Shown here: one piece after another, positions 245-46,680 of the stretch
Layout of the letters: the number at the start of each line of letters is the position of its first letter
Position numbering within the stretch: the stretch's first letter is position 1
DNA from: an uncultured Candidatus Saccharibacteria bacterium
GTDB taxonomy: Bacteria; Patescibacteriota; Minisyncoccia; Minisyncoccales; GWA2-38-27
Length of the DNA: 46,680 bases
Direction of reading: 5' to 3'
NCBI GenBank assembly: GCA_964509645.1
Contig: CAZDXV010000004.1
Span: 1-46,680, forward strand
Translations under genes and position numbers: made by a program
The notes under the pieces: generated by a model
What the model was told of the DNA's origin: nothing
The model's input: the letters and a program-made list of their open reading frames with translations, nothing else
Database searches by the model: none

Positions 245-919
245 ATGAAACAGGTAACGATGATTGCAATGATGTTGGCTTTTTCGAGCACTCTTTTTGG
301 TGCCGGTCCCATCCTGGATACGCCCTCAAACGTTTTCATGGGGGATAACGTGCATCTTCAGGATGTGGAGTTTGGCTGGTGGACTACCACCAACGACAAA
401 AAAGCGGAAGCGTCTATTTACCTGAACCTTGAACACCATAAGGTTCAGACTACTGGCTGGTCTTTTTACGCCAGGAATCACGATCCCAGTCAATGGTTCG
501 CTAGCTTCAATGCGAGCGGAGTGTTGCTGGATGAAGGCGAGGAACCCATTTTCTTTTCGAAAAACCAGGAAAGCTGGATCGAAAGGGGGCCTCTATTTCT
601 TACTACCAGCAACGCTGTTCACAGAACAACTTTCGGCGAGCCGGGGGATTTTCATGATTACCAAACCATTCGAGGACGATTGTCTCTGGAGCCGGCAGCG
701 ATCGATTCCGCCCAGTTCGATTATCGCGAGTACAAGGATTCTTTCGGCCAGCCGGAAACGAGGTGGCACGGTAATTTTCACATCGAAGGGAGGTTCCTTG
801 CCGACAGCCACAAAGAAGCCCAGGCTTTGGGGTCTCAGTTTGTTACCCCCGAGCCGGCTACCCTCTGCCTTCTGGGTCTGGGTGTTGCCGGAGTGATTCT
901 TCGGCGGCGCAAGACCTGA
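245..919 (+). CDS. PEP-CTERM sorting domain-containing exported protein
   Basis: N-terminal signal peptide; C-terminus TPEPATLCLLGLGVAGVILRRRKT (PEP, TM helix, basic tail); visibly GC-richer than flanks. Confidence 0.85.
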   Translation: MKQVTMIAMMLAFSSTLFGAGPILDTPSNVFMGDNVHLQDVEFGWWTTTNDKKAEASIYLNLEHHKVQTTGWSFYARNHDPSQWFASFNASGVLLDEGEEPIFFSKNQESWIERGPLFLTTSNAVHRTTFGEPGDFHDYQTIRGRLSLEPAAIDSAQFDYREYKDSFGQPETRWHGNFHIEGRFLADSHKEAQALGSQFVTPEPATLCLLGLGVAGVILRRRKT

Positions 920-1045: not shown

Positions 1046-2575
1046 ATGAAAAAATATTATAAACTCTTTTATGCTTTCTTTGCTGTAATGTTAGTTATTT
1101 TTTTGCTTTTAGGCCCTGCCTTTTTTCAGGCAGAGGAATCTTCTATAGCTAAAGCAGTTTCTTTAGAAAAATTGCAGGTTTTAATCACAGATATTCAAAA
1201 TCGGCTTTCCAATCTTGAAAATCAAATAAACAGAGAAAACGAAGAGCCATTGTTGCGATGTCATGATTTTAATGTTAATTTAAGATACGGAATGAGAGGA
1301 TCAGAAGTAAGATCTTTACAGACAGCTTTAAAAAAAGAAGGATTTTACAATAGATCAGTTACAGGTTATTTCGATGAGTACACCGCTTCAGCAGTAGTTG
1401 GTTTTCAGGAAAAATATGCTTCAGATATTTTAGCTTCTTGGGGTTTAACGCATGGAACAGGTTATGTGGGCTCTACTACTATTACCAAACTAAACGATCT
1501 TTATAAGTGTGAAGAGGAAGAACCAAAAGAGGAGGATTGCCATACCTCTGATTTATGGAGTTGGAAGTACTGTACTTCAGACTGTAAGTGTAATGCCGGA
1601 GAAGGGGATTGTGATTCAAATGATGATTGTACTACAGGATACTGTGCCTATAATGTAGGAAAGGATTATGGGCAAAACAGCAAGATGGATGTTTGTCAAG
1701 AGAAAGAGGAAGAAGAAAAAACTATAGAGGTGATTTCTCCCAATGGAGGAGAAGAATGGGAAAGAGGTTCTGTTCAGAAGATAATTTGGAATTATGAGCC
1801 ACTACCTCCCGATGAATTCAAAATCAGTTTAGTAAATGTTAATAACGACACAATTGTTACGGATTTGAAAAATTGCGGTACAGCCGGTCTTTATCAAGAC
1901 AGTAGCCAACCCACAAAATTTTGGTGGAACTGGGAAGTAGGAGAGAATGCCGAAGGAAAGACGATTCCAGCAGTGGGTTCTTATAGGATAATGGTTACTG
2001 ATTGCGAAGAAACAAAGGACTTTAGTGACACATCATTTACCATGGTTAATCCGGTTCAGAAATCAATCACTGTTGTTTCTCCCAACGGAGGAGAGGAATG
2101 GGAAAAGGGAAAAACATATGTAGTCGATTGGGAATCAATAGGAGCTGATGATATAGAAGTTATATCTCTGATTGACTACAGCGATTTCTCAAATCCAACC
2201 GGATATCATCTTGCCTACCACCACTCTACGGAACTTTTATATTCCTGGACAATTTCTGATTCATTTGAAGTAGGAAGTAAATACAAAATTGAAGTAGTTG
2301 CCTCTTCAGGCGATACTATTTTTTCCGATGAAAGTGATGGCTATTTCAGCATTGTTGGAAGTTTTGATTGTAATGACGCAGATATTTCTAGTTCAGCCTC
2401 AGGAGTTTCTGACGGAACAGTTAATGTTTATGATTTATTAAAAGTTCGTCAATGTGTTGGCGAGGACGTTTCTGGAGATTGTGAAATTGCTGATATTAAC
2501 AATGACGGGGTAATTAATGAAGATGACGCAGATATTATTAGAGAATTTTACTTGCAGGAATGTATTGTAAAATAA
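1046..2575 (+). CDS. secreted multidomain surface protein: peptidoglycan-binding domain, Cys-rich module, two Kre9/GPI-anchored-like Ig repeats, C-terminal dockerin-like domain
   Basis: NLRYGMRGSEVRSLQTAL...GYFDEYTASAVVGFQ (PG_binding_1); two I(E/T)V(I/V)SPNGGEEW repeats; DGTVNVYDL...ADINNDGVINEDD dockerin pattern. Confidence 0.8.
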   Translation: MKKYYKLFYAFFAVMLVIFLLLGPAFFQAEESSIAKAVSLEKLQVLITDIQNRLSNLENQINRENEEPLLRCHDFNVNLRYGMRGSEVRSLQTALKKEGFYNRSVTGYFDEYTASAVVGFQEKYASDILASWGLTHGTGYVGSTTITKLNDLYKCEEEEPKEEDCHTSDLWSWKYCTSDCKCNAGEGDCDSNDDCTTGYCAYNVGKDYGQNSKMDVCQEKEEEEKTIEVISPNGGEEWERGSVQKIIWNYEPLPPDEFKISLVNVNNDTIVTDLKNCGTAGLYQDSSQPTKFWWNWEVGENAEGKTIPAVGSYRIMVTDCEETKDFSDTSFTMVNPVQKSITVVSPNGGEEWEKGKTYVVDWESIGADDIEVISLIDYSDFSNPTGYHLAYHHSTELLYSWTISDSFEVGSKYKIEVVASSGDTIFSDESDGYFSIVGSFDCNDADISSSASGVSDGTVNVYDLLKVRQCVGEDVSGDCEIADINNDGVINEDDADIIREFYLQECIVK

Positions 2576-2690
2576 AAATCCATTACAGTAACTTTTCTTA
2601 ATGGAGGAGAAAGTTGAATAGCCGGAGAAGATTACGATATTACCTGAGATTTTTAAAAAGTAGAAGAAGTAATGATTGAGCTGATTATCA
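2576..2690 (+). pseudogene. decayed third Ig-like repeat, in frame after the stop of the 1046-2575 gene
   Basis: translates KSITVTFLNGGES*IAGEDYDIT*DF*KVEEVMIELI, versus intact KSITVVSPNGGEEWEKGKTYVVDW. Confidence 0.75.
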
Positions 2691-2770
2691 TTTTTTGAGT
2701 GTCGGTTACAGGAAAGAATAAAAAGTGCTTTGGTCTTTCCGAATAGATTTATTGTTTAGCTGGTTTTTTA

Positions 2771-2804
2771 AAAAGCCCCTCGGTTTAAACCGAGGGGCTT
2801 TTTT
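2771..2804 (+). terminator. intrinsic terminator, near copy of the one at 925
   Basis: aaaagcccctcggttt/aaaccgaggggctttt palindrome ending in a T run. Confidence 0.75.
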
Positions 2805-2843
2805 ATGCTTAATTTTAGCTTTCATTTCTGCTATACTGAAAGT

Positions 2844-3614
2844 ATGATAGGCGTATTTGACTCTGGGGTAGGAGGACTTACTGTTGTTTCCGAGATTAAA
2901 AAGCTTCTTCCAGAGCAGAAAATAATATACTTTGGCGATACAGCTCATCTTCCTTACGGGACAAAAGGGGAGAGGTTTGTAAGGGAAAGCTCTGAAAAGA
3001 TAACAAAGTGGCTTTTAGGCAAGGGAGCTGATGTTATTGTTGTGGCCTGCAACACTTCTTCTGCCTGGGCTTCTGATTACCTTAAAGAGAAGTTTCCTAA
3101 AACTCCTATTTTTGAAATGATAACTCCTGCAATAAAAGATATGGATCCTTTTAAAAAGATAGGGGTTATAGGGACTCCGGGAACTGTTGAAAGCCAAGTC
3201 TACAACAAAAAACTCTTTGTCGGGGGTTTAGATCCTGAGGTTTTTTCTGTATCGTGCCCCTTATTTGTTCCTTTGGCAGAAGAGGGTTGGCTGGAAGGAA
3301 GAGTAACAGAAGAGATAGCGGAAAGATATTTGAAACCTCTAAAAGATAAAGAAATTGAGGCTTTGGTTTTAGCCTGTACCCATTATCCCTTATTAAAAAA
3401 TGTTATTAAAAGAATATCCGGAAAAAGGATTAAAATAGTGAATCCAGCTGAAAGTTTAGCTAAGGAATTAGCTTCTTTTTTAAAGAAAAATCCTGTTTCT
3501 AAAGACAAAGGAAAAAGTAAGTATTATTTTACAGACAATCCCTATAATTGCGAGAAGATAAGCAGGCTTTGTCTGGGTAATAAGATAAAACCTATTTTGA
3601 TAAAGCCTTTATGA
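2844..3614 (+). CDS. murI: glutamate racemase
   Basis: IGVFDSGVGG, VACNTSS, LACTHYP; start moved to ATG 2844. Confidence 0.95.
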   Translation: MIGVFDSGVGGLTVVSEIKKLLPEQKIIYFGDTAHLPYGTKGERFVRESSEKITKWLLGKGADVIVVACNTSSAWASDYLKEKFPKTPIFEMITPAIKDMDPFKKIGVIGTPGTVESQVYNKKLFVGGLDPEVFSVSCPLFVPLAEEGWLEGRVTEEIAERYLKPLKDKEIEALVLACTHYPLLKNVIKRISGKRIKIVNPAESLAKELASFLKKNPVSKDKGKSKYYFTDNPYNCEKISRLCLGNKIKPILIKPL

Positions 3615-4960
3615 AAGATTTTAAAGAAAAAAAAATAACTGTAATGGGGCTGGGTCTTCATGGAGGAGGCGTTGGAACAGCAAAATTTTTTTGCAATATG
3701 GGAGCTGATGTTTTAGTTACAGATCTAAAAAAAGAAGAGGAGCTTAAAGAATCTTTGGAAAAACTAGAAGGTCTGGATATTTCTTTTGTTTTAGGAGAGC
3801 ACAGAGAAGAAGATTTTATCAATGCAGATTTGATTATCAGAAATCCTGATGTCCCTTGGGATTCTTTTTTTATTAAAAAAGCTAAAGAGCGGGGTATTCC
3901 TATCAAGACAGATATAGAGATTTTCTTTGATTTATTTAAAGGAAAAATTATAGGGATAACAGGGACTAAAGGAAAATCTACTGTGGCTACTCTTGTTTAT
4001 CTTTTTTTAAAAAAAAGATATTCAGTTGTCTTGGGAGGGAATATAGGAGTTTCTCCTTTAGAGCTTCTTTTAAAAAATAAAGAAGCTAAGATAGCTGTTT
4101 TGGAACTTTCAAGCTTTGAATTGGAGGGATTAAAAAGAAGCCCTGAAACTGCAGTTTTTACTAATATGCTAAAGGATCATTTAAAAAGACATGGAAGTTT
4201 TGATAAATATGTTGAAGCCAAAAAAGAGATTTTTCTTAACCAAAAAGAAAAAAACAATTTAATTTTAAATTATGATGATAAAAAAGTGAGAAGTTTTGCT
4301 AAAGAAGCCGTATCAGAAGTTTATTTCTTTTCAACAAAAAACATTATCAAAGGTTCTTTTCTGAAAGAAGGCAAAATATATTTTAAAAAAGAAGAAGTTT
4401 GCTCCTTAGAAAATATTAAATTAAAAGGGAATCATAATCTTTCTAATGTCTTAGCTTCTGTAGCAGCGGCTAAAATATACAGTGTTTCTTCTAAAGATAT
4501 TAGAAAGGTTTTAATGGATTTTGAAGGCGTTCCTTTTCGCCAGCAGTTTATAACAGAGGTTAACGGAAAAAATTACTACAATGATACTACAGCTACGATA
4601 CCAGATGCTGTTATTGAAGCTCTTAAATCCTTTTCAGGAGATATTGTTTTGATAGCCGGAGGAGTTGATAAAGGATCAGAGTATAAAGATCTAGCCAAAA
4701 AGATAAAAGATAAAGTTTCTTCTTTAGTTCTTCTTCCTGGAACTGCCTCAGATAAGCTTAAGAAGGAATTGGAGAGAATAGGATTTGAAAATATATTTTT
4801 AGCGGAAAATATGAAAGAAGCTGTTAAAAAAAGCTCTTCTTTAAAAGGGAACATTGTCTTACTTTCTCCTGGGGGTTCAAGTTTTAATCTTTTTAAGAAT
4901 GAATTTGACAGGGGAAAGAAATTTAACAAAGAAGTTGAAAATTTAAAAAATGAAAAATAG
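3611..4960 (+). CDS. murD: UDP-N-acetylmuramoyl-L-alanine--D-glutamate ligase
   Basis: GITGTKGKST, LELSSFEL, DHLKRH, YYNDT, LLSPG..SF..F. Confidence 0.95.
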   Translation: MKDFKEKKITVMGLGLHGGGVGTAKFFCNMGADVLVTDLKKEEELKESLEKLEGLDISFVLGEHREEDFINADLIIRNPDVPWDSFFIKKAKERGIPIKTDIEIFFDLFKGKIIGITGTKGKSTVATLVYLFLKKRYSVVLGGNIGVSPLELLLKNKEAKIAVLELSSFELEGLKRSPETAVFTNMLKDHLKRHGSFDKYVEAKKEIFLNQKEKNNLILNYDDKKVRSFAKEAVSEVYFFSTKNIIKGSFLKEGKIYFKKEEVCSLENIKLKGNHNLSNVLASVAAAKIYSVSSKDIRKVLMDFEGVPFRQQFITEVNGKNYYNDTTATIPDAVIEALKSFSGDIVLIAGGVDKGSEYKDLAKKIKDKVSSLVLLPGTASDKLKKELERIGFENIFLAENMKEAVKKSSSLKGNIVLLSPGGSSFNLFKNEFDRGKKFNKEVENLKNEK

Positions 4961-39168: not shown

Positions 39169-39282
39169 CTATAGGGGGGCTACCTACTTTAGCCCTAAAG
39201 GACTATCATCGGCCTTAAAGGATTTCACTTCTGTGTTCGGAATGGGAACAGGTGGAGCACCTTCAGTATAGCCCCCTTATAG
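39169..39282 (-). rRNA. rrf: 5S rRNA (ends approximate)
   Basis: CACCTGTTCCCATTCCGAACACAGAAGTGAA, GCCGATGATAGT, AGTAGG; terminal helix. Confidence 0.9.
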
Positions 39283-39903: not shown

Positions 39904-40727
39904 CATATTAATTCTGTATTACTACAGATATGGACTATATCTTCCAAACACTCTGATTGAGTATTTGGCTGACGTATTATAGTGATTTATAATGACTGCT
40001 CACTATCTCTCGATTATTGTTCGAGAAGTCTCTACGGGGACAATTTTATATCTCATTGAAGGAATTATGTAGGGTTCTATAATCTTTCTTAATTTACAAG
40101 TTCCAGTATTATCCAATCTTAACCTCCATCTGTTTCGATCTTTGTTTATTCTGGAAATAATACTTAATTTACTCCTCAGAATTTTTCTTAATTTTTCATT
40201 TTCAAAAAAAGAAAAATTATGAGTATTTACGATAAGAGATTTTCCATCGTTGCACCCATCATCCATAATCCAGACTGCGAGAGTTATTGGTGTTAACAAA
40301 TCAGAAATATTCTTAGGTAATACTTTTGTTTTTCCAGAATAAAACATTTTATACATTTCTTTAAACTCTGTAGTTGTTCTAGTATGGAAGTACCAAGAAT
40401 AATAATCTTCATTGTTTTTAAGGTTTTTTCCACAAACTATTTTTTTAGGCGGACATAAAACTAGATTTTTAAACACTCCATACTTCCAAAAAACAAAATC
40501 CTTTTGTTTCCATCCATGGTGAATTCTTAATCGAGCGCTTTTTGTCTTTGATCGACATTCTAGTCGTCCATCTCCTAAAAGACATCCTAAAGCAACTTCT
40601 CTCTGTAGTTTTGAGATGAAAAATTGTCTTCCCACGGTATTACCCATTCTTTTATTTTAGCATATATCGTTAAAAGAATTAGGGCTCCACCGTTATTAGT
40701 CAGTTTTTACTGGGCTCATATTCACTT
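39904..40727 (-). mobile_element. group I intron at 23S position 2584 with homing endonuclease, 824 nt
   Basis: junction gctgggU|tcaaaccgt; ends in G; core motifs present. Confidence 0.9.
40003..40647 (-). CDS. LAGLIDADG homing endonuclease (double motif)
   Basis: ALGCLLGDG and LAVWIMDDG motifs; 3' end overlaps ribozyme core. Confidence 0.9.
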
Positions 40728-40811
40728 ACCCAGCTCACGTAACGCTTTAATTGGCGAACAGCCAAACCCTTGGGAGCGGCTCCACCCCCAGGATGCGTTG
40801 AGCCGACATCG

Positions 40812-41069
40812 CTGTCGGATTTTACTCTTCTTACGAAGAGGATCGGACTATATCTTCATCCATTATCTTTTAAAAAAGAGCATGGAGTCGGCGTATGATA
40901 GAAATTTTATTCCTATCTCACCTTGCACTAATCTCTTTTTCAAGAAACTAGTCTCAGGATCAGTCTCTACGGGGTACATAAAGTACTTCCCACGATGTTG
41001 TCCGCATAGCGGATTTCACCGTTATTAGCCGAATTTTTAAACAGCATTGCTGCCGTAACACCCCGATTG
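40812..41069 (-). mobile_element. group I intron at 23S position 2500, 258 nt, no ORF
   Basis: junction cacc U|cgatgtcggct; ends in G; CCGTAGAGACT and GATATAGTCC. Confidence 0.88.
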
Positions 41070-41612
41070 AGGTGTCGAACAGGGCCGTTGATGTGGACTC
41101 GCGGGCCCTACTAACCTGTTATCCCCGGGGTAACTTTTGTCTGATGATCTCTGGATTTTCTACGAAAATCCATCGGTTCACTAAGTCCTGGTTTCCCAAC
41201 TGCGCGCATTAACTTGCTTGCAGTAAAGCCGGCTTATGGCTTTGTCCTATCGCTCCGATTTCCATCCGGAGCTAGCCGACCTTTGAGCGCCTCCGTTACT
41301 TTTTAGGAGGCAAGTGCCCCACTCAAACTGACCGTTAAGCACTGTTTCCCGCGTCAAGCGCGAGATTAGAACTAAGGCTTCAAAAGGGCGGTGTTCCATT
41401 GGCGACTCCACCCCGACCGAAATCAGGGTTTCAAAGTCTCCCGCCTACACTACGCATCTAAAACCAAAACTCAATACCTAACTACAGTAAAGCTCCCGGG
41501 GTCTTTCCGTCTAGCCGTAGGTAACCGGCATCTTCACCGGTACTGCATTTTCACCGGGCTACTCCTGGAGACAGTCCCCTAGTCGTTGAACCTTTCATGC
41601 GGGCCGGAACTT

Positions 41613-41865
41613 CAAATAGACTATACCTTCAATAATGATTTAACTCTTCTAGAATTCTCATATGTTTCTTTCTGAAACATTATTGGTTAGCGTGTTATAG
41701 GAGGTTCGAATACTCCTATCTCGGATTTCTCCTCAGTCGTTACGGGCCCAAGTAATATAACTTGATTCCCACGAGATTGGAAAAAAGAATTGACCTAACG
41801 TTCCTTGAAACGTTTTCTTTTTTCTTTCCCCGTTATGAGCTAACTTACGGGCAAGTCCGACACTT
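41613..41865 (-). mobile_element. group I intron at 23S position 1951, 253 nt, no ORF
   Basis: junction ccgggU|aagttcc; ends in G; CGTAACGACT and GGTATAGTC. Confidence 0.85.
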
Positions 41866-41905
41866 ACCCGGCAAGGGATTACGCTACCTTTGGACGGTTA
41901 TAGTT

Positions 41906-42138
41906 CATTTACTCCCTATATCGCTATAGAGTATGGACCATATCTTTTCCCGAACGGGAACCTGACGTATGGCCTCTGAGGATTCTTTTAGCTTTCCGCT
42001 AAAAGCCTTTCCTGCTGATTGACCGCTTCAATTGAACTTTTTTACTGCTTTTAAGCGAGTAGTTCAATATACCCGGTGTTTCCAGCATATAGTCAGGTTT
42101 TTTCTTGAAAAATTACTTTCAAGAGCGGCAACTTTCTT
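41906..42138 (-). mobile_element. group I intron at 23S position 1911 (helix 69), 233 nt, no ORF
   Basis: junction ggcggU|aactataac; ends in G; TCAGAGGCC and GATATGGTCC core. Confidence 0.85.
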
Positions 42139-44320
42139 ACCGCCGACGTTCACTGGGGCTTCACTCGCTTAGCTGCTGTCCGAAGACAGCTACCGGCAAG
42201 CTTAACCTTCCAGCACTGGTCAGGTCTCAGCCCCTATACATCCTCTTACGAGTTTAGCAGGGACCTGTGTTTTTGATAAACAGTCGCTAGGGGTACTTTC
42301 GCTGCGGCCCCAATAAAGGGGCAAGGTATATCCCGAAGTTACACCTGCTTTTTTGCCGAGTTCCTTCAGGAGATTTCACCCGTTCACCTTGGCACACTAA
42401 CGCCAACCCACCTGTGTCGGTTTGCGGTACGGTCTCCCTTAATGATAACTTCCAATGAACTTTTCCCGGGAAACTGCTCATTTAGATCTGTTCTGTCGAA
42501 ACAGAACATTTCGCCTGCTCTTGGAAAAACCTTAAACAGGCAACGGGAATCCAATAACCCGCCTAAACTACTAGCTTCCGTCATTCACTGGACTCATTAA
42601 AGGAGGGGCCGGAATATTAACCGGCTGTCCATCGGGTACGCCGTTCAGCTTCCCCTTAGGACCGCCTAACCCTTGGATGATTATCATTGCCAAGGAAACC
42701 TTGGGTTTTCGGTGCATGGGGCTCTCACCCATGTTGCGGTTACTCGTGCCAACATTCTCACTTCTTAAAACTCCACCAAGCCTTACAGCTCGGCTTCAGC
42801 GCTTTAAGAACGCTCCCCTACCTCTTTTATCTAAAAGATAAAAAACCTTATCTTCGGTATCAAGCTTTAGTCCCGGAAATCTTTGGCGCAAAAACCCTTA
42901 ACTAGTAAGCTGTTACGCACTTTTTAAAGGATAGCTGCTTCTAAGCTAACCTCCTAGCTATCCGAGGGATCTTACTTCCTTAGAAACACTTAGCTTGATT
43001 TAGGGACCTTAGATGAAGATCTGGGCTGTTTCCCTTTCGACCATGGAGCTTAGCCCCCACAGTCTGACTGCCTAGCTAAACTTTGCGGTATTCGGAGTTT
43101 GGTTGGAAAGACTGGGCAAAGCCCACGTAATTCCATCCAGTGCTCTACCCCCGCAAGTAAACTAAACGCTAGCCCTAAAGCTATTTCGGGGAGAACCAGC
43201 TATTCCCAAGCTCGATTAGCTTTTCACTTCTTACCACAGCTCATCCTAAAGTGTTGCACGACTTACAGGTTCGGGCCTCCCCTTGTCTTTCGACAAGGTT
43301 CACCCTGGCCATGGCAAGCTCGCTTGGCTTCGGGTCCTTAGCATCTTCTAAAGATTGCGCTATTAACACTCGGTTTCCCTTAGCCTTCGGGGCGGAACCC
43401 CTTAGACAAAAAGAAGATACTAAGACTCGTTGGCTCATTCTGCAAAAGGCACGCCGTCACTCTGTAAACAGAGCTCCGACTCCTTGTAAGCATGATGGTT
43501 TCAGGTTCTATTTCACCGGGGTCAACCCCCTACTTTTCACCTTTCCCTCACGGTACTGGTTCGCTATCGGTGATATTGAGTATTTAGCCTTGGCCGGTTA
43601 GTCCGGCCTGCTTCCCACAGGGCTTTCTTTCCCCATGGTACTTAAGTAAGACAACAAGGAGCATAAAGAAATTTTCAAATACGGGGCTTTTACCCTCTCT
43701 GGCCGCCCTTTCCAGGGTCGTTCTTTTAACCTCTTTAACATTCTCCCTCAGCAAGAATCCTTCGCCGTTCAAAAAAACAGCAAAGGATGCTCCTGACGTT
43801 ATCCCCTTGCAACCCTCACAAAAAAGTGAGTTTGGGCTTTTCCCTTTTCGCTCGCCGCTACTAAGAGAATAAACTTCGTTCTCTTTTCCTCCGCTTACTG
43901 AGATGTTTCACTTCAGCGGGTTAGCTCCAGACATTAAAGCCTGGTATCTATGCTTTATCACATAGATGGGTTTCCCCATTGGGAAATCTTCGGATCAAAG
44001 GTTGCTAGACACCTACCCGAAGCTTATCGCAGTCACGCCACGTCCTTCATCGCCTCAATATCCCAGGGCATCCACCATCTGCTTCTAAAAAATTGCTTTC
44101 TTTTGTTAAAGAAAGCTAGAAAAACTTGACTAACAATTAATAACTGTAATTCTCCATATTCATCTTAGAGGTTATGACTCTAAGAATTTTCAAAGTTCCT
44201 CATTCTGACAATCAAAAAACCGCTCTGAAGCGGTCTAAACATTCCACAAAAATAGGCTGTTGTTTAACCGCTTCTTTTGTTGGGACGAGTTTTCTCGTTA
44301 CTTATCATAACTACTTTTCA

Positions 44321-45293: not shown

Positions 45294-45370
45294 TGGTGGA
45301 CCGTGCCAGATTCGAACTGGCGACCTCCTCATTGCAAATGAGGCGTTCTAGCCAACTGAACTAACGGCCC
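45294..45370 (-). tRNA. tRNA-Ala(TGC)
   Basis: cloverleaf, G3:U70, anticodon TGC, encoded CCA. Confidence 0.95.
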
Positions 45371-45447
45371 TGGTGGGCGTGCGTGGACTCGAACCACGGA
45401 CCTCAGCTTTATCAGAGCTGCGCTCTTACCGCCTGAGCTACACGCCC
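45371..45447 (-). tRNA. tRNA-Ile(GAT)
   Basis: cloverleaf, loop ctGATaa, encoded CCA. Confidence 0.95.
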
Positions 45448-45516: not shown

Positions 45517-45701
45517 CCTCAACGGGTTCAATTCCTAAAAGTTGCTCCGACTATCAAAATAATCGAAATTTTAGGTTCCTCGATTAATGCCTTATCGTTG
45601 AAAACAGAATTCTACGTTCTCAACAATAGCCGACACAAACAACTAAAAAAGTTGTTTTGTTTAATTGATCCACGAGCAGGTTCCCCTACCCGTGCCTTGT
45701 T

Positions 45702-46055
45702 CATGTTATTCCCTATATCGCTATAGAGCATGGACTATATCACCATCCTCTTTCTTAGAGTTTTTACTTTTCTCGGGTGCCAAGAACTATAAGTTCCATC
45801 ATGCAAGCAACCGAGAAGATAAGCTTTAATTACTTTCCTAGAAAGAGGAGCTCGGCGTGTAGTCTCTGAGGGGTCTATCTGATCTAATTTCAGAAAAAGA
45901 CTTCCCTGCTGATTAACTGCATTAGTAGCATTTTTACTTATGCTATCCATTAAATAATTATAACATAAGTAGCTCTAAATACTCAGTCTTTCCAGCATAT
46001 AGCCGAGTTTTTCCCTAAGATCTCTCTCAGGGGTCGCAACATGCAGATTGCATCA
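45702..46055 (-). mobile_element. group I intron at 16S position 1498, 354 nt, with decayed LAGLIDADG remnant
   Basis: junction aagtcgU|aacaagg; ends in G; TCAGAGACT and GATATAGTCC; remnant KAYLLGCLHDGT. Confidence 0.88.
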
Positions 46056-46140
46056 ACGACTTCATCCCTATTACTGACCTTACCTTCGGCCTTCTAAAGA
46101 AGGACTTCGGGTACTGTCAGCTCTCTTGATGTGACGGGCG

Positions 46141-46680
46141 ATTGTCTACTAGGAACTTAGCATTGACGTTCCCACCGTACATGCAGATTTCCCGCATACG
46201 GCGAGCTCTAATGCATTTTTTCTTTAAGTTTATGTACTTGTAATAAACCAGATTTTTCCAGATGTTTTTTCTTTTCAACCAATTCCATAATTTTACAAAA
46301 AACCTTAAAATCATTTCTTTTGCTTTCCAGCTTAAGCTTATTCTTCAGATATCTTTTTGGAAATACACATTTCCGCAAGTGAAAAATTCTTTCAATTAAT
46401 AAAGAATTCTTTTGTCTTTCGAAACAAGTTTCAGATAAAACCTAGGCTCTACAAGAGCTCTTCTTTTTCCTTTGCTTCTATCTTTAGGATTACGAACATA
46501 AGCCGTAAAACTTCCTTCTCCATCTACCAAGCCAATAATATAATCTGGTTTAATCATACATTAGAGAAGATCCTTCCCCGATAAATCAGGTACTATGATC
46601 TAGCTGACTTCTGACGTAGCGTCAATTCCATTATACTACGTCAGATCTCCCTGGGTCAATATATAGACTGTTCCCAACAT
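46141..46680 (-). mobile_element. group II intron (3' part) inserted just before 16S C1400
   Basis: domain V TCGCCGTATGCGGGAAATCTGCATGTACGGTGG (46204-46172), 3' end AT, upstream GGGAGATCT...CAGAAGTCAGC...CATAGTA...GAAGG domain II/III signature. Confidence 0.85.
46208..46557 (-). pseudogene. single-motif LAGLIDADG endonuclease pseudogene in group II intron domain IV
   Basis: MIKPDYIIGLVDGEGSF...; TAA at codon 54; frameshift/deletion before KRNDFKVFCKIMELVEKKKHL. Confidence 0.88.

Follow-up and report, generated by a model that had tools for sequence, protein, structure and literature searches.

A probable class C-like group II intron with a decayed LAGLIDADG gene at position 1400 of the 16S rRNA gene in a Candidatus Saccharibacteria genome

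How could an intron that encodes no reverse transcriptase (RT) be spliced out of the decoding region of 16S ribosomal RNA (rRNA)? The question is raised by the right end of contig CAZDXV010000004.1 (C4 in our numbering) from an uncultured Candidatus Saccharibacteria bacterium (assembly GCA_964509645.1; 616,202 bases in 35 contigs, rated 98% complete). The window analyzed here is this entire contig of 46,680 bases, and a preliminary description, made from its letters alone, had placed in its last 540 nucleotides (nt) a group II intron that carries a LAGLIDADG gene instead of an RT. We conclude with high confidence that this segment is the 3′ 540 nt of a class C-like group II intron located between C1399 and C1400 of the 16S rRNA gene, and that it belongs to the 16IS9 family of the Candidate Phyla Radiation (CPR). 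All 16S positions follow our own count from A1408 and G1405.

The intron sequence lies on the minus strand from 46680 to its last base at 46141, and the contig stops within domain I. Position 46140 opens the second 16S exon, CGCCCGTCAC (CGCCCGUCACAUCAAG... onward), which corresponds to C1400 and the bases that follow it. Full copies in relatives read ...UUGUACUCAC / intron / CGCCCGUCAC..., so that the site is C1399|C1400 and the proposed position in the decoding region is borne out. Window position 46663 aligns with position 1513 of the relative locus L008 and with 1518 of L002; 46680 is thus equivalent to 1496 and 1501 of these loci, which lie 193 nt (L008) and 209 nt (L002) past the start of the intron. 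We estimate that approximately 193–209 nt of the 5′ part of the intron, together with all of the upstream 16S sequence, lie outside the assembly, and that the whole intron would measure 730–750 nt. A Logan DNA contig of sequencing run X1 reaches 256 nt beyond 46680; no RNA run was among those listed for this stretch, and the contigs of all four runs compared with it are of DNA. Among searches meant to recover the 5′ part, an exact 31-nt pattern had no match in the metagenome_contigs collection, and a 27-nt pattern had a single match in metagenome contigs, L047, which is another family member from a different organism.

Domains II to VI follow one another in order in the window (Table 1), and of domain I only the last ~36 nt are present; full copies in relatives do have a domain I, whose closing stem pairs a 5′ CCYGG with CCRGG and shows a U-A pair against a C-G pair between L008 and L002. 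Minimum-free-energy folds of the window RNA return domains II, III, V, and VI. Covariation was assessed in two alignments. Alignment A1 comprises the window and 18 relatives across the last part of domain I and domains II and III; L009, L022, L023, L026, L028, L030, L033, and L037 were omitted, mostly because of a differing length of domain II, and L009, L026, and L028 are cut at an internal GAGATC/GATATC and have lost their 5′ part. Alignment A2 covers domains V and VI in the window and 22 relatives, without L003, L035, and L036.

In domains II and III taken together, 90.9% of the alignment cells are paired, 17 of the 19 pairs change on both sides, and none of 500 shuffles reached the observed covariation score, while controls in which the partner was moved by one to three columns gave at most 45.4% paired cells. 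Seven of the nine domain II pairs change on both sides and the remaining two never vary among the 19 sequences. In domain III, every one of the ten pairs changes on both sides, at 91.6% and 92.4% paired cells, and the motifs GAAGUCAGC and UAGUA are invariant in 19/19 sequences. Domains V and VI have 94.2% paired cells with changes on both sides in 15 of 22 pairs, a result that 0/500 shuffles equaled on four of five measures. Domain V accounts for seven of these pairs (7/14; 99.1% of cells paired, 23 sequences) and domain VI for all of its eight, after which the intron ends with AAU. Thus, helices II, III, V, and VI of the proposed group II intron all covary. The window keeps each of the 27 invariant columns of A1 and the 23 of A2, and an intact ribozyme beside a decayed open reading frame (ORF) indicates selection acting on the RNA, as judged from these alignments.

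The catalytic triad of domain V reads CGC, as had been proposed, where most group II introns have AGC; its first C varies once (to G) and the GC is invariant in the 23 sequences. With this triad and a ribozyme about 400 nt long (an ORF-less relative measures 405 nt), the core is class C-like. We use the term ‘IIC-like’ because the insertion site is a single strand of 16S rRNA and not a terminator.

Domain VI differs from what had been suggested. The preliminary description had taken GGAAC (46172-46168) and GTTCC (46156-46152), followed by 11 nt to the intron end, as its stem. The two motifs are complementary and the distance is correct, but they do not form the domain VI helix: of the bases that such a stem would require, two belong to basal pairs of domain V and five to the loop of domain VI. 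Although 83.3% of its cells are paired, 29 of 500 shuffles reach this value and only two cells show changes on both sides, so that the pairing can be put down to conservation alone. In the domain VI supported by covariation, the window has no unpaired A on the 3′ strand, and the position 6 nt from the end is a G paired to a C.

Two further observations concern this part of the intron. The domain VI loop, AGUU(U/C)C (46152-46156 in part), is conserved in most of the 23 sequences and complementary to the conserved GGAAC (46168-46172), a possible tertiary contact that shows no covariation by which to test it. In L003 (genome G009), L035 (G141), and L036 (G313), about 50 extra nt capable of forming a hairpin lie between domains V and VI, upstream of GGGAAC.

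The stem of domain IV encloses 345 nt, and these hold the remains of a single-motif LAGLIDADG gene, as the preliminary description had recognized. The motif is preserved as IIGLVDGEGSF. A G-to-T change created a premature TAA at a codon that is GAA or GAC in four intact relatives, and relative to the same four genes the window lacks 79 nt (alignment columns 225-303), a deletion that changes the reading frame. On its own, the C-terminal remnant has no Pfam match; read through its two internal stops, the gene matches PF00961 with 42.7 bits, the sole LAGLIDADG_1 match in the genome. The endonuclease gene of the window is a pseudogene, and since the stop and the frameshifting deletion have inactivated it, the window copy is probably immobile. 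A single-motif LAGLIDADG_1 endonuclease in domain IV would formerly have served as the mobility module.

Copies of this intron occur in three states: with an intact ORF, as in genome G011 (142 amino acids, PF00961 71.8 bits), with decayed ORFs, and without an ORF, as in genome G027 (L008 1303-1707, 405 nt). In addition, a DNA contig of run X2 has 46208 and 46560 linked by eight other letters and represents an ORF-less allele of a related strain. Such a range of states resembles the cycle in which homing endonuclease genes are usually gained, decay, and are lost.

No RT is encoded in the part of the intron present in the window or in the full copies of relatives, as the preliminary description had stated for the former. 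Outside the intron, no maturase-type RT was found in the assembled genome. Its only RT has 331 amino acids, matches RVT_1 alone in Pfam, and scores 141.7 bits on the NCBIfam model for group II RT/maturases, for which the cut-off is 300. This gene adjoins a 138-nt direct repeat whose mismatches are all (15/15) at adenines in the RT-proximal copy, a bias characteristic of diversity-generating retroelements. The variable copy is situated at the 3′ terminus of an ORF of 226 amino acids without a family match. The candidate trans-acting group II RT, for which a search of the genome had been suggested, is therefore not a maturase but part of this retroelement.

Many group II introns require a protein in vivo, and splicing of the window copy could depend on one supplied in trans, whether a host factor or a maturase of LAGLIDADG or RT type from another gene. 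As would be expected if the protein came from outside the intron, the ORF of the intron is inactivated in the window and missing from some alleles. A second LAGLIDADG_1 gene was not found in the genome, however, the only RT is of the retroelement type, and in the available portions of the source, the LAGLIDADG protein encoded by one fungal group II intron had no stimulatory effect on splicing (PMC4424553). We therefore regard dependence on a trans-acting protein as unlikely, although a host factor could still contribute. We favor splicing without an intron-encoded protein: because its gene is dead in the window and missing from some alleles, none would be needed.

How the intron would find its splice sites can be deduced from relatives, which provide all 5′ features since the corresponding part of the window copy lies off the contig. 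In all 22 relatives with full 5′ parts, 7–10 nt separate the exon from a conserved GCG, and the same spacing holds in 89/89 loci in which the exon end and GCGY could be located (of 115 distinct loci). The commonest form is AAUAAAA-GCG (59/89). None of the 89 junctions starts with G, and the two bases before GCG are AA, AC, AU, CU, CC, or UC, never GU; GCG(C/U)C then runs into the closing stem of domain I. Apparently, the family has a leader of 5–8 nt before a degenerate GUGYG.

A hairpin loop in domain I ends with GG(U/C)GGUGAG; in 107 of the 115 loci its closing stem has at least four of five pairs, and 37 different stem sequences occur. The GUGAG of the loop is complementary to CUCAC, the last five bases of the upstream exon, and in all 21 complete 5′ parts from this site ...GGUGAG pairs with CUCAC(C). 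Exon 2 begins with CGCCC, five bases to which the preceding GGG(U/C)G is complementary, and we infer that the 5′ half of the loop may bind exon 2. One relative, L009 (G020:C26, ~1794 to 949, minus strand), varies at this point: its intron, which has an intact LAGLIDADG ORF, is inserted 3–4 nt farther downstream, ...CUCACCGC(C) / intron / (C)CGUCAC, and its loop is altered from GGGYGGUGAG to CGGGCGGU, matching the shifted junction. As the only variation available on this pairing, the retargeting in L009 supports recognition by exon-binding site 1 (EBS1) and intron-binding site 1 (IBS1), a hallmark of group II introns. In the proposed mechanism, the domain I loop GGGYGGUGAG would pair with CUCAC|CGCCC of the 16S rRNA and so fix the splice sites.

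Several points weigh against this assignment or against the splicing chemistry that we prefer. No group II family reached its Rfam gathering score in the window. When Rfam was run in E-value mode, RF01998 (group-II-D1D4-1) scored 33.1 bits against a gathering score of 35, and the Intron_gpII family proposed as a check, RF00029, did match domain V (27.2 bits, E 0.007) but stayed below its gathering score of 40; among eight loci of relatives scanned, two exceeded the gathering score of RF01998 (39.8 and 36.8 bits). The 5′ splice site and the exon-binding loop of the window copy are not in the assembly, and the 5′ features described above come from relatives that are 68–80% identical. These junctions were tallied in a set gathered by a pattern that requires the exon-binding loop, and hence in a biased sample. 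Canonical GUGYG directly after the exon, which the preliminary description had expected, occurs in 0/89 relatives; as it is found at no relative's junction, its absence is not a valid argument against a group II intron in this family. The same departure has been described for LAGLIDADG-bearing group II introns (PMC13190283, PMC4424553). Against hydrolysis as a rule for the family, 8 of 23 relatives, including the closest to the window, have an unpaired A on the domain VI 3′ strand, at a distance of 6 nt from the end of the intron. Moreover, some LAGLIDADG-bearing group II introns form lariats, which according to the accessible text of a recent survey was demonstrated for one fungal intron (PMC13190283).

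The first splicing step could accordingly follow the normal branching pathway, with an adenosine in or next to domain VI as the nucleophile and the 5′ leader merely tolerated. Besides the adenosines of the eight relatives, the window itself offers two unpaired A's on the 5′ strand of domain VI and the AAU at its 3′ end. The usual branch A lies on the 3′ strand, 7–8 nt from the intron end, so that a branch A at a distance of 6 nt, where the window has its paired G, or one on the 5′ strand would be non-canonical. All of the 89 junctions, in addition, lack the canonical first G and have extra 5′ nucleotides. In fungal introns, such junctions reportedly accompanied linear products only (Li et al. 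in 2011). Branching to a lariat is therefore possible but in our view the less probable course, and we lean towards hydrolysis in place of branching as the first step, because the relatives have a 5′ leader and no canonical first G and because domain VI of the window has no unpaired A on its 3′ strand. Hydrolytic splicing had been hinted at in the preliminary description; the hint fits the present evidence, although not on account of the domain VI stem given there but rather of the leader and the missing unpaired A. As far as the text of the sources extends, a 5′-terminal linker is found in all members of the bacterial IIC-LAGLIDADG family (PMC13190283), and in fungal LAGLIDADG group II introns a 5′ linker is tied to loss of the branch point, and the combination of the two to hydrolytic splicing (PMC4424553, PMC13190283).

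A different possibility is that the element does not splice at all. As a decaying insertion, it could leave a 16S rRNA that works in two pieces, the insertion being removed by host RNases in the manner of bacterial intervening sequences, or a second, unassembled 16S gene could do the work. The endonuclease gene is dead, the Rfam scores are under gathering, and the upstream 16S is unassembled, as either scenario might lead one to expect. Yet the ribozyme helices are fully paired and all 27 + 23 invariant columns are kept despite the decay of the ORF, and in L009 the exon-binding loop follows the junction when the site shifts. A break between C1399 and C1400 would fall inside the decoding center. 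As for a second copy, only one 23S rRNA gene is assembled at 98% completeness, a model search found no small subunit (SSU) rRNA elsewhere in the assembly (control 14/14), and the upstream 16S of a relative, used as a query, had no match anywhere in it. We consider a non-splicing insertion very improbable. Since there is one 23S, no second 16S, and a complete set of invariant columns beside a decayed ORF, we infer that the intron RNA would be excised and the exons joined.

These features lead to a broader and distinctly tentative proposal, namely that the introns at position 1400 of CPR 16S genes form a class C-like lineage that abandoned branching, in which an A/U-rich leader of 5–8 nt displaces the canonical G and a 10-nt loop guides the intron across both exons (16S 1395-1404). 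If true, this would account for the slide of the L009 site by 3–4 nt with only a trimmed loop, and for protein-less copies still splicing from the decoding center of the cell's only 16S rRNA. A loop that spans the junction would bear some resemblance in its action to the internal guide found in group I introns.

Conservation analysis by DNA searches gave matches in 15 of 61 related genomes including that of the window, seven of them strong, and a wider DNA search, over a sample of 401 genomes of the class, gave matches in 22. A protein search identified 23 loci, and an RNA motif pattern had 90 matches in a collection of species representatives. Among the matches listed (80 of 90 for the pattern), the hosts are mostly Patescibacteria or members of the Parcubacteria group. 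The pattern matches L089, L105, L118, and L140 have longer spacing and come from other taxa; by a rough estimate, about four chance matches are to be expected. Thiotrichaceae sequences were absent from the listed matches of the protein and RNA pattern searches, and the ORF-less relative of 405 nt, used as a blastn query, showed no similarity to plasmid-borne group II introns that encode an RT. An intron of this type, called rare in the preliminary description, is rare among bacteria at large, but not in this lineage. With its intact, decayed, and ORF-less copies, the family is a natural bacterial series that could be used to test whether 5′-terminal extensions force hydrolytic splicing, an idea so far examined in fungal mitochondrial introns.

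The ribosomal RNA (rrn) operon is located at the right end of the window on the minus strand, with the gene order 16S, tRNA-Ile, tRNA-Ala, 23S, and 5S, and contains the only assembled 23S copy. Its 16S gene harbors a second intron, of group I, which is placed between ~U1498 and A1499 by our own count; past this intron the 16S sequence continues AACAAGGCA...GGAUCA. A 71-amino-acid frame within the group I intron (45950-45735, minus strand) has no Pfam match. DNA contigs of runs X2 and X5 join 45701 to 46056 and omit 354 nt, which indicates alleles without the 16S group I intron in related strains. The 3′ end of the 16S gene (~45655-45670, minus strand) reads ...GGAUCAAUUAAAC, and L009 has GGAUCAUUUCAUU at ~810-830 (minus strand). 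The anti-Shine-Dalgarno sequence CCUCC is absent after GGAUCA from the 16S 3′ end of both the window and L009. In loci of relatives, the Rfam bacterial SSU model stops just before the group II intron. Introns of this type disrupt 16S assembly and escape rRNA model searches, and in the present genome no SSU rRNA was called despite 98% completeness.

Table 1. Features of the intron, of the surrounding rRNA operon, and of the retroelement found elsewhere in the assembly.
Feature	Coordinates	Strand	Basis
3′ tail AAU; 3′ splice site after 46141	46141-46143	-	Exon 2 CGCCCGUCAC begins at 46140; boundary same in 22 aligned relatives
Domain VI: GUC/GAC lower stem, AA bulge on 5′ strand, UGCUA/UAGUA upper stem, AGUUCC loop	46144-46167	-	Minimum-free-energy fold; covariation
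Domain V: 10 + 4 base pairs, 2-nt AU bulge, GAAAU loop, CGC triad at 46203-46201	46171-46205	-	RF00029, 27.2 bits; minimum-free-energy fold
Domain IV: stem CUCUAAUG (46566-46559) / CAUUAGAG (46213-46206) around the endonuclease remnant	46206-46566	-	Stem common to ORF-less L008, there with a 6-nt loop
C-terminal endonuclease remnant in the other frame (...KRNDFKVFCKIMELVEKKKHLEKSGLLQVHKLKEKMH), TAG stop inside the domain IV 3′ strand	46208-46378	-	Alignment to the 3′ third of intact genes of G011, G043, G045, and G356
N-terminal LAGLIDADG_1 remnant, 53 codons (MIKPDYIIGLVDGEGSF...) to the premature TAA	46396-46557	-	PF00961, 23.6 bits (cut-off 23.1)
Junction J2/3 (AAGUCAGCU) and domain III: AGAUC/GAUCU lower stem, AUAGUA/GAAG internal loop, CCUGA/UCGGG upper stem	46568-46610	-	Covariation
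Domain II hairpin CUGACGUAG / CUACGUCAG, 9 base pairs	46611-46644	-	Minimum-free-energy fold; inside RF01998 match
3′ end of domain I, with CCAGG (46654-46650) as 3′ strand of the closing stem	46645-46680	-	Aligned to L008 1496-1531 and L002 1501-1536
16S exon piece between the two introns, C1400 to ~U1498 (helix 44)	46056-46140	-	Direct reading against L009 (no intron at second site)
Group I intron, second intron of the same 16S gene	45702-46055	-	Rfam, 86.5 bits over 45711-46073
tRNA-Ala(TGC) and tRNA-Ile(GAT)	45294-45447	-	tRNA pair between 16S and 23S
23S rRNA	40671-44098	-	Rfam scan
Group I intron inside the 23S rRNA gene	41914-42148	-	Rfam, 79.2 bits
5S rRNA	39171-39279	-	Rfam scan
Diversity-generating retroelement, G000:C7:5500-10500 (L046)	RT 2017-3012; repeats 3400-3537, 3874-4011	- (RT)	Repeats 89% identical

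Among known systems, the ORF-less class C ribozyme of Oceanobacillus iheyensis shares the CGC triad and is similarly compact, with a core of about 400 nt. Its J2/3 and domain III are presumably very similar (GAAGUCAGC...AUAGUA...GAAGG). The O. iheyensis intron starts with canonical GUGYG, derives from an RT-encoding intron, and lies behind a terminator-like hairpin. A parallel case, though not a homolog, is provided by fungal mitochondrial rRNA introns of class IIB1 with 5′-terminal insertions, which in the portions of the source available have lost the branch-site motif and EBS2, mostly carry LAGLIDADG ORFs, and are spliced upstream of GUGYG (PMC4424553). They differ from the window copy in having a IIB1 and not a IIC-like backbone, a mitochondrial host, and in some cases ORFs in domain III.

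In bacteria, the ‘rns-1396’ family of Thiotrichaceae described by Liu et al. 2026 consists, according to the accessible text, of IIC introns with a single-motif LAGLIDADG gene in domain IV, a 5′-terminal linker in every member, no EBS2, and conserved IBS1 and IBS3 (PMC13190283). The window copy resembles this family in its 16S location, IIC-like backbone, LAGLIDADG gene in domain IV, and the 5′ linker of its relatives, whereas the rns-1396 hosts are Gammaproteobacteria. It shares all listed rns-1396 traits that can be tested; a term search of the available text of the survey returned no mention of CPR or Patescibacteria.

The closest counterpart is the intron type that Tsurumaki et al. 2024 reported from CPR genomes, with 53 group II-like insertions that, in the available text, occur only at 16S position 1400 (16IS9), 39 of which encode LAGLIDADG_1 and none an RT, in a class detected with Rfam models (PMC11270868). 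Since group II-like LAGLIDADG introns at this position of CPR 16S genes are thus already published, the window copy carries little weight as a discovery. A term search of the available text of PMC11270868 returned no description of the 5′ leader, the exon-binding loop, or a domain VI model, and, as far as term searches show, the covariation-backed domain VI, the 5′ leader found throughout the CPR family, the junction-spanning loop, and the shifted-site variant go beyond the two published accounts. Apart from its decayed gene and its truncation by the contig end, nothing of substance sets the window copy apart from 16IS9 as described there: it agrees in host group, site, LAGLIDADG_1 endonuclease, and lack of an RT, that is, in every 16IS9 trait compared.

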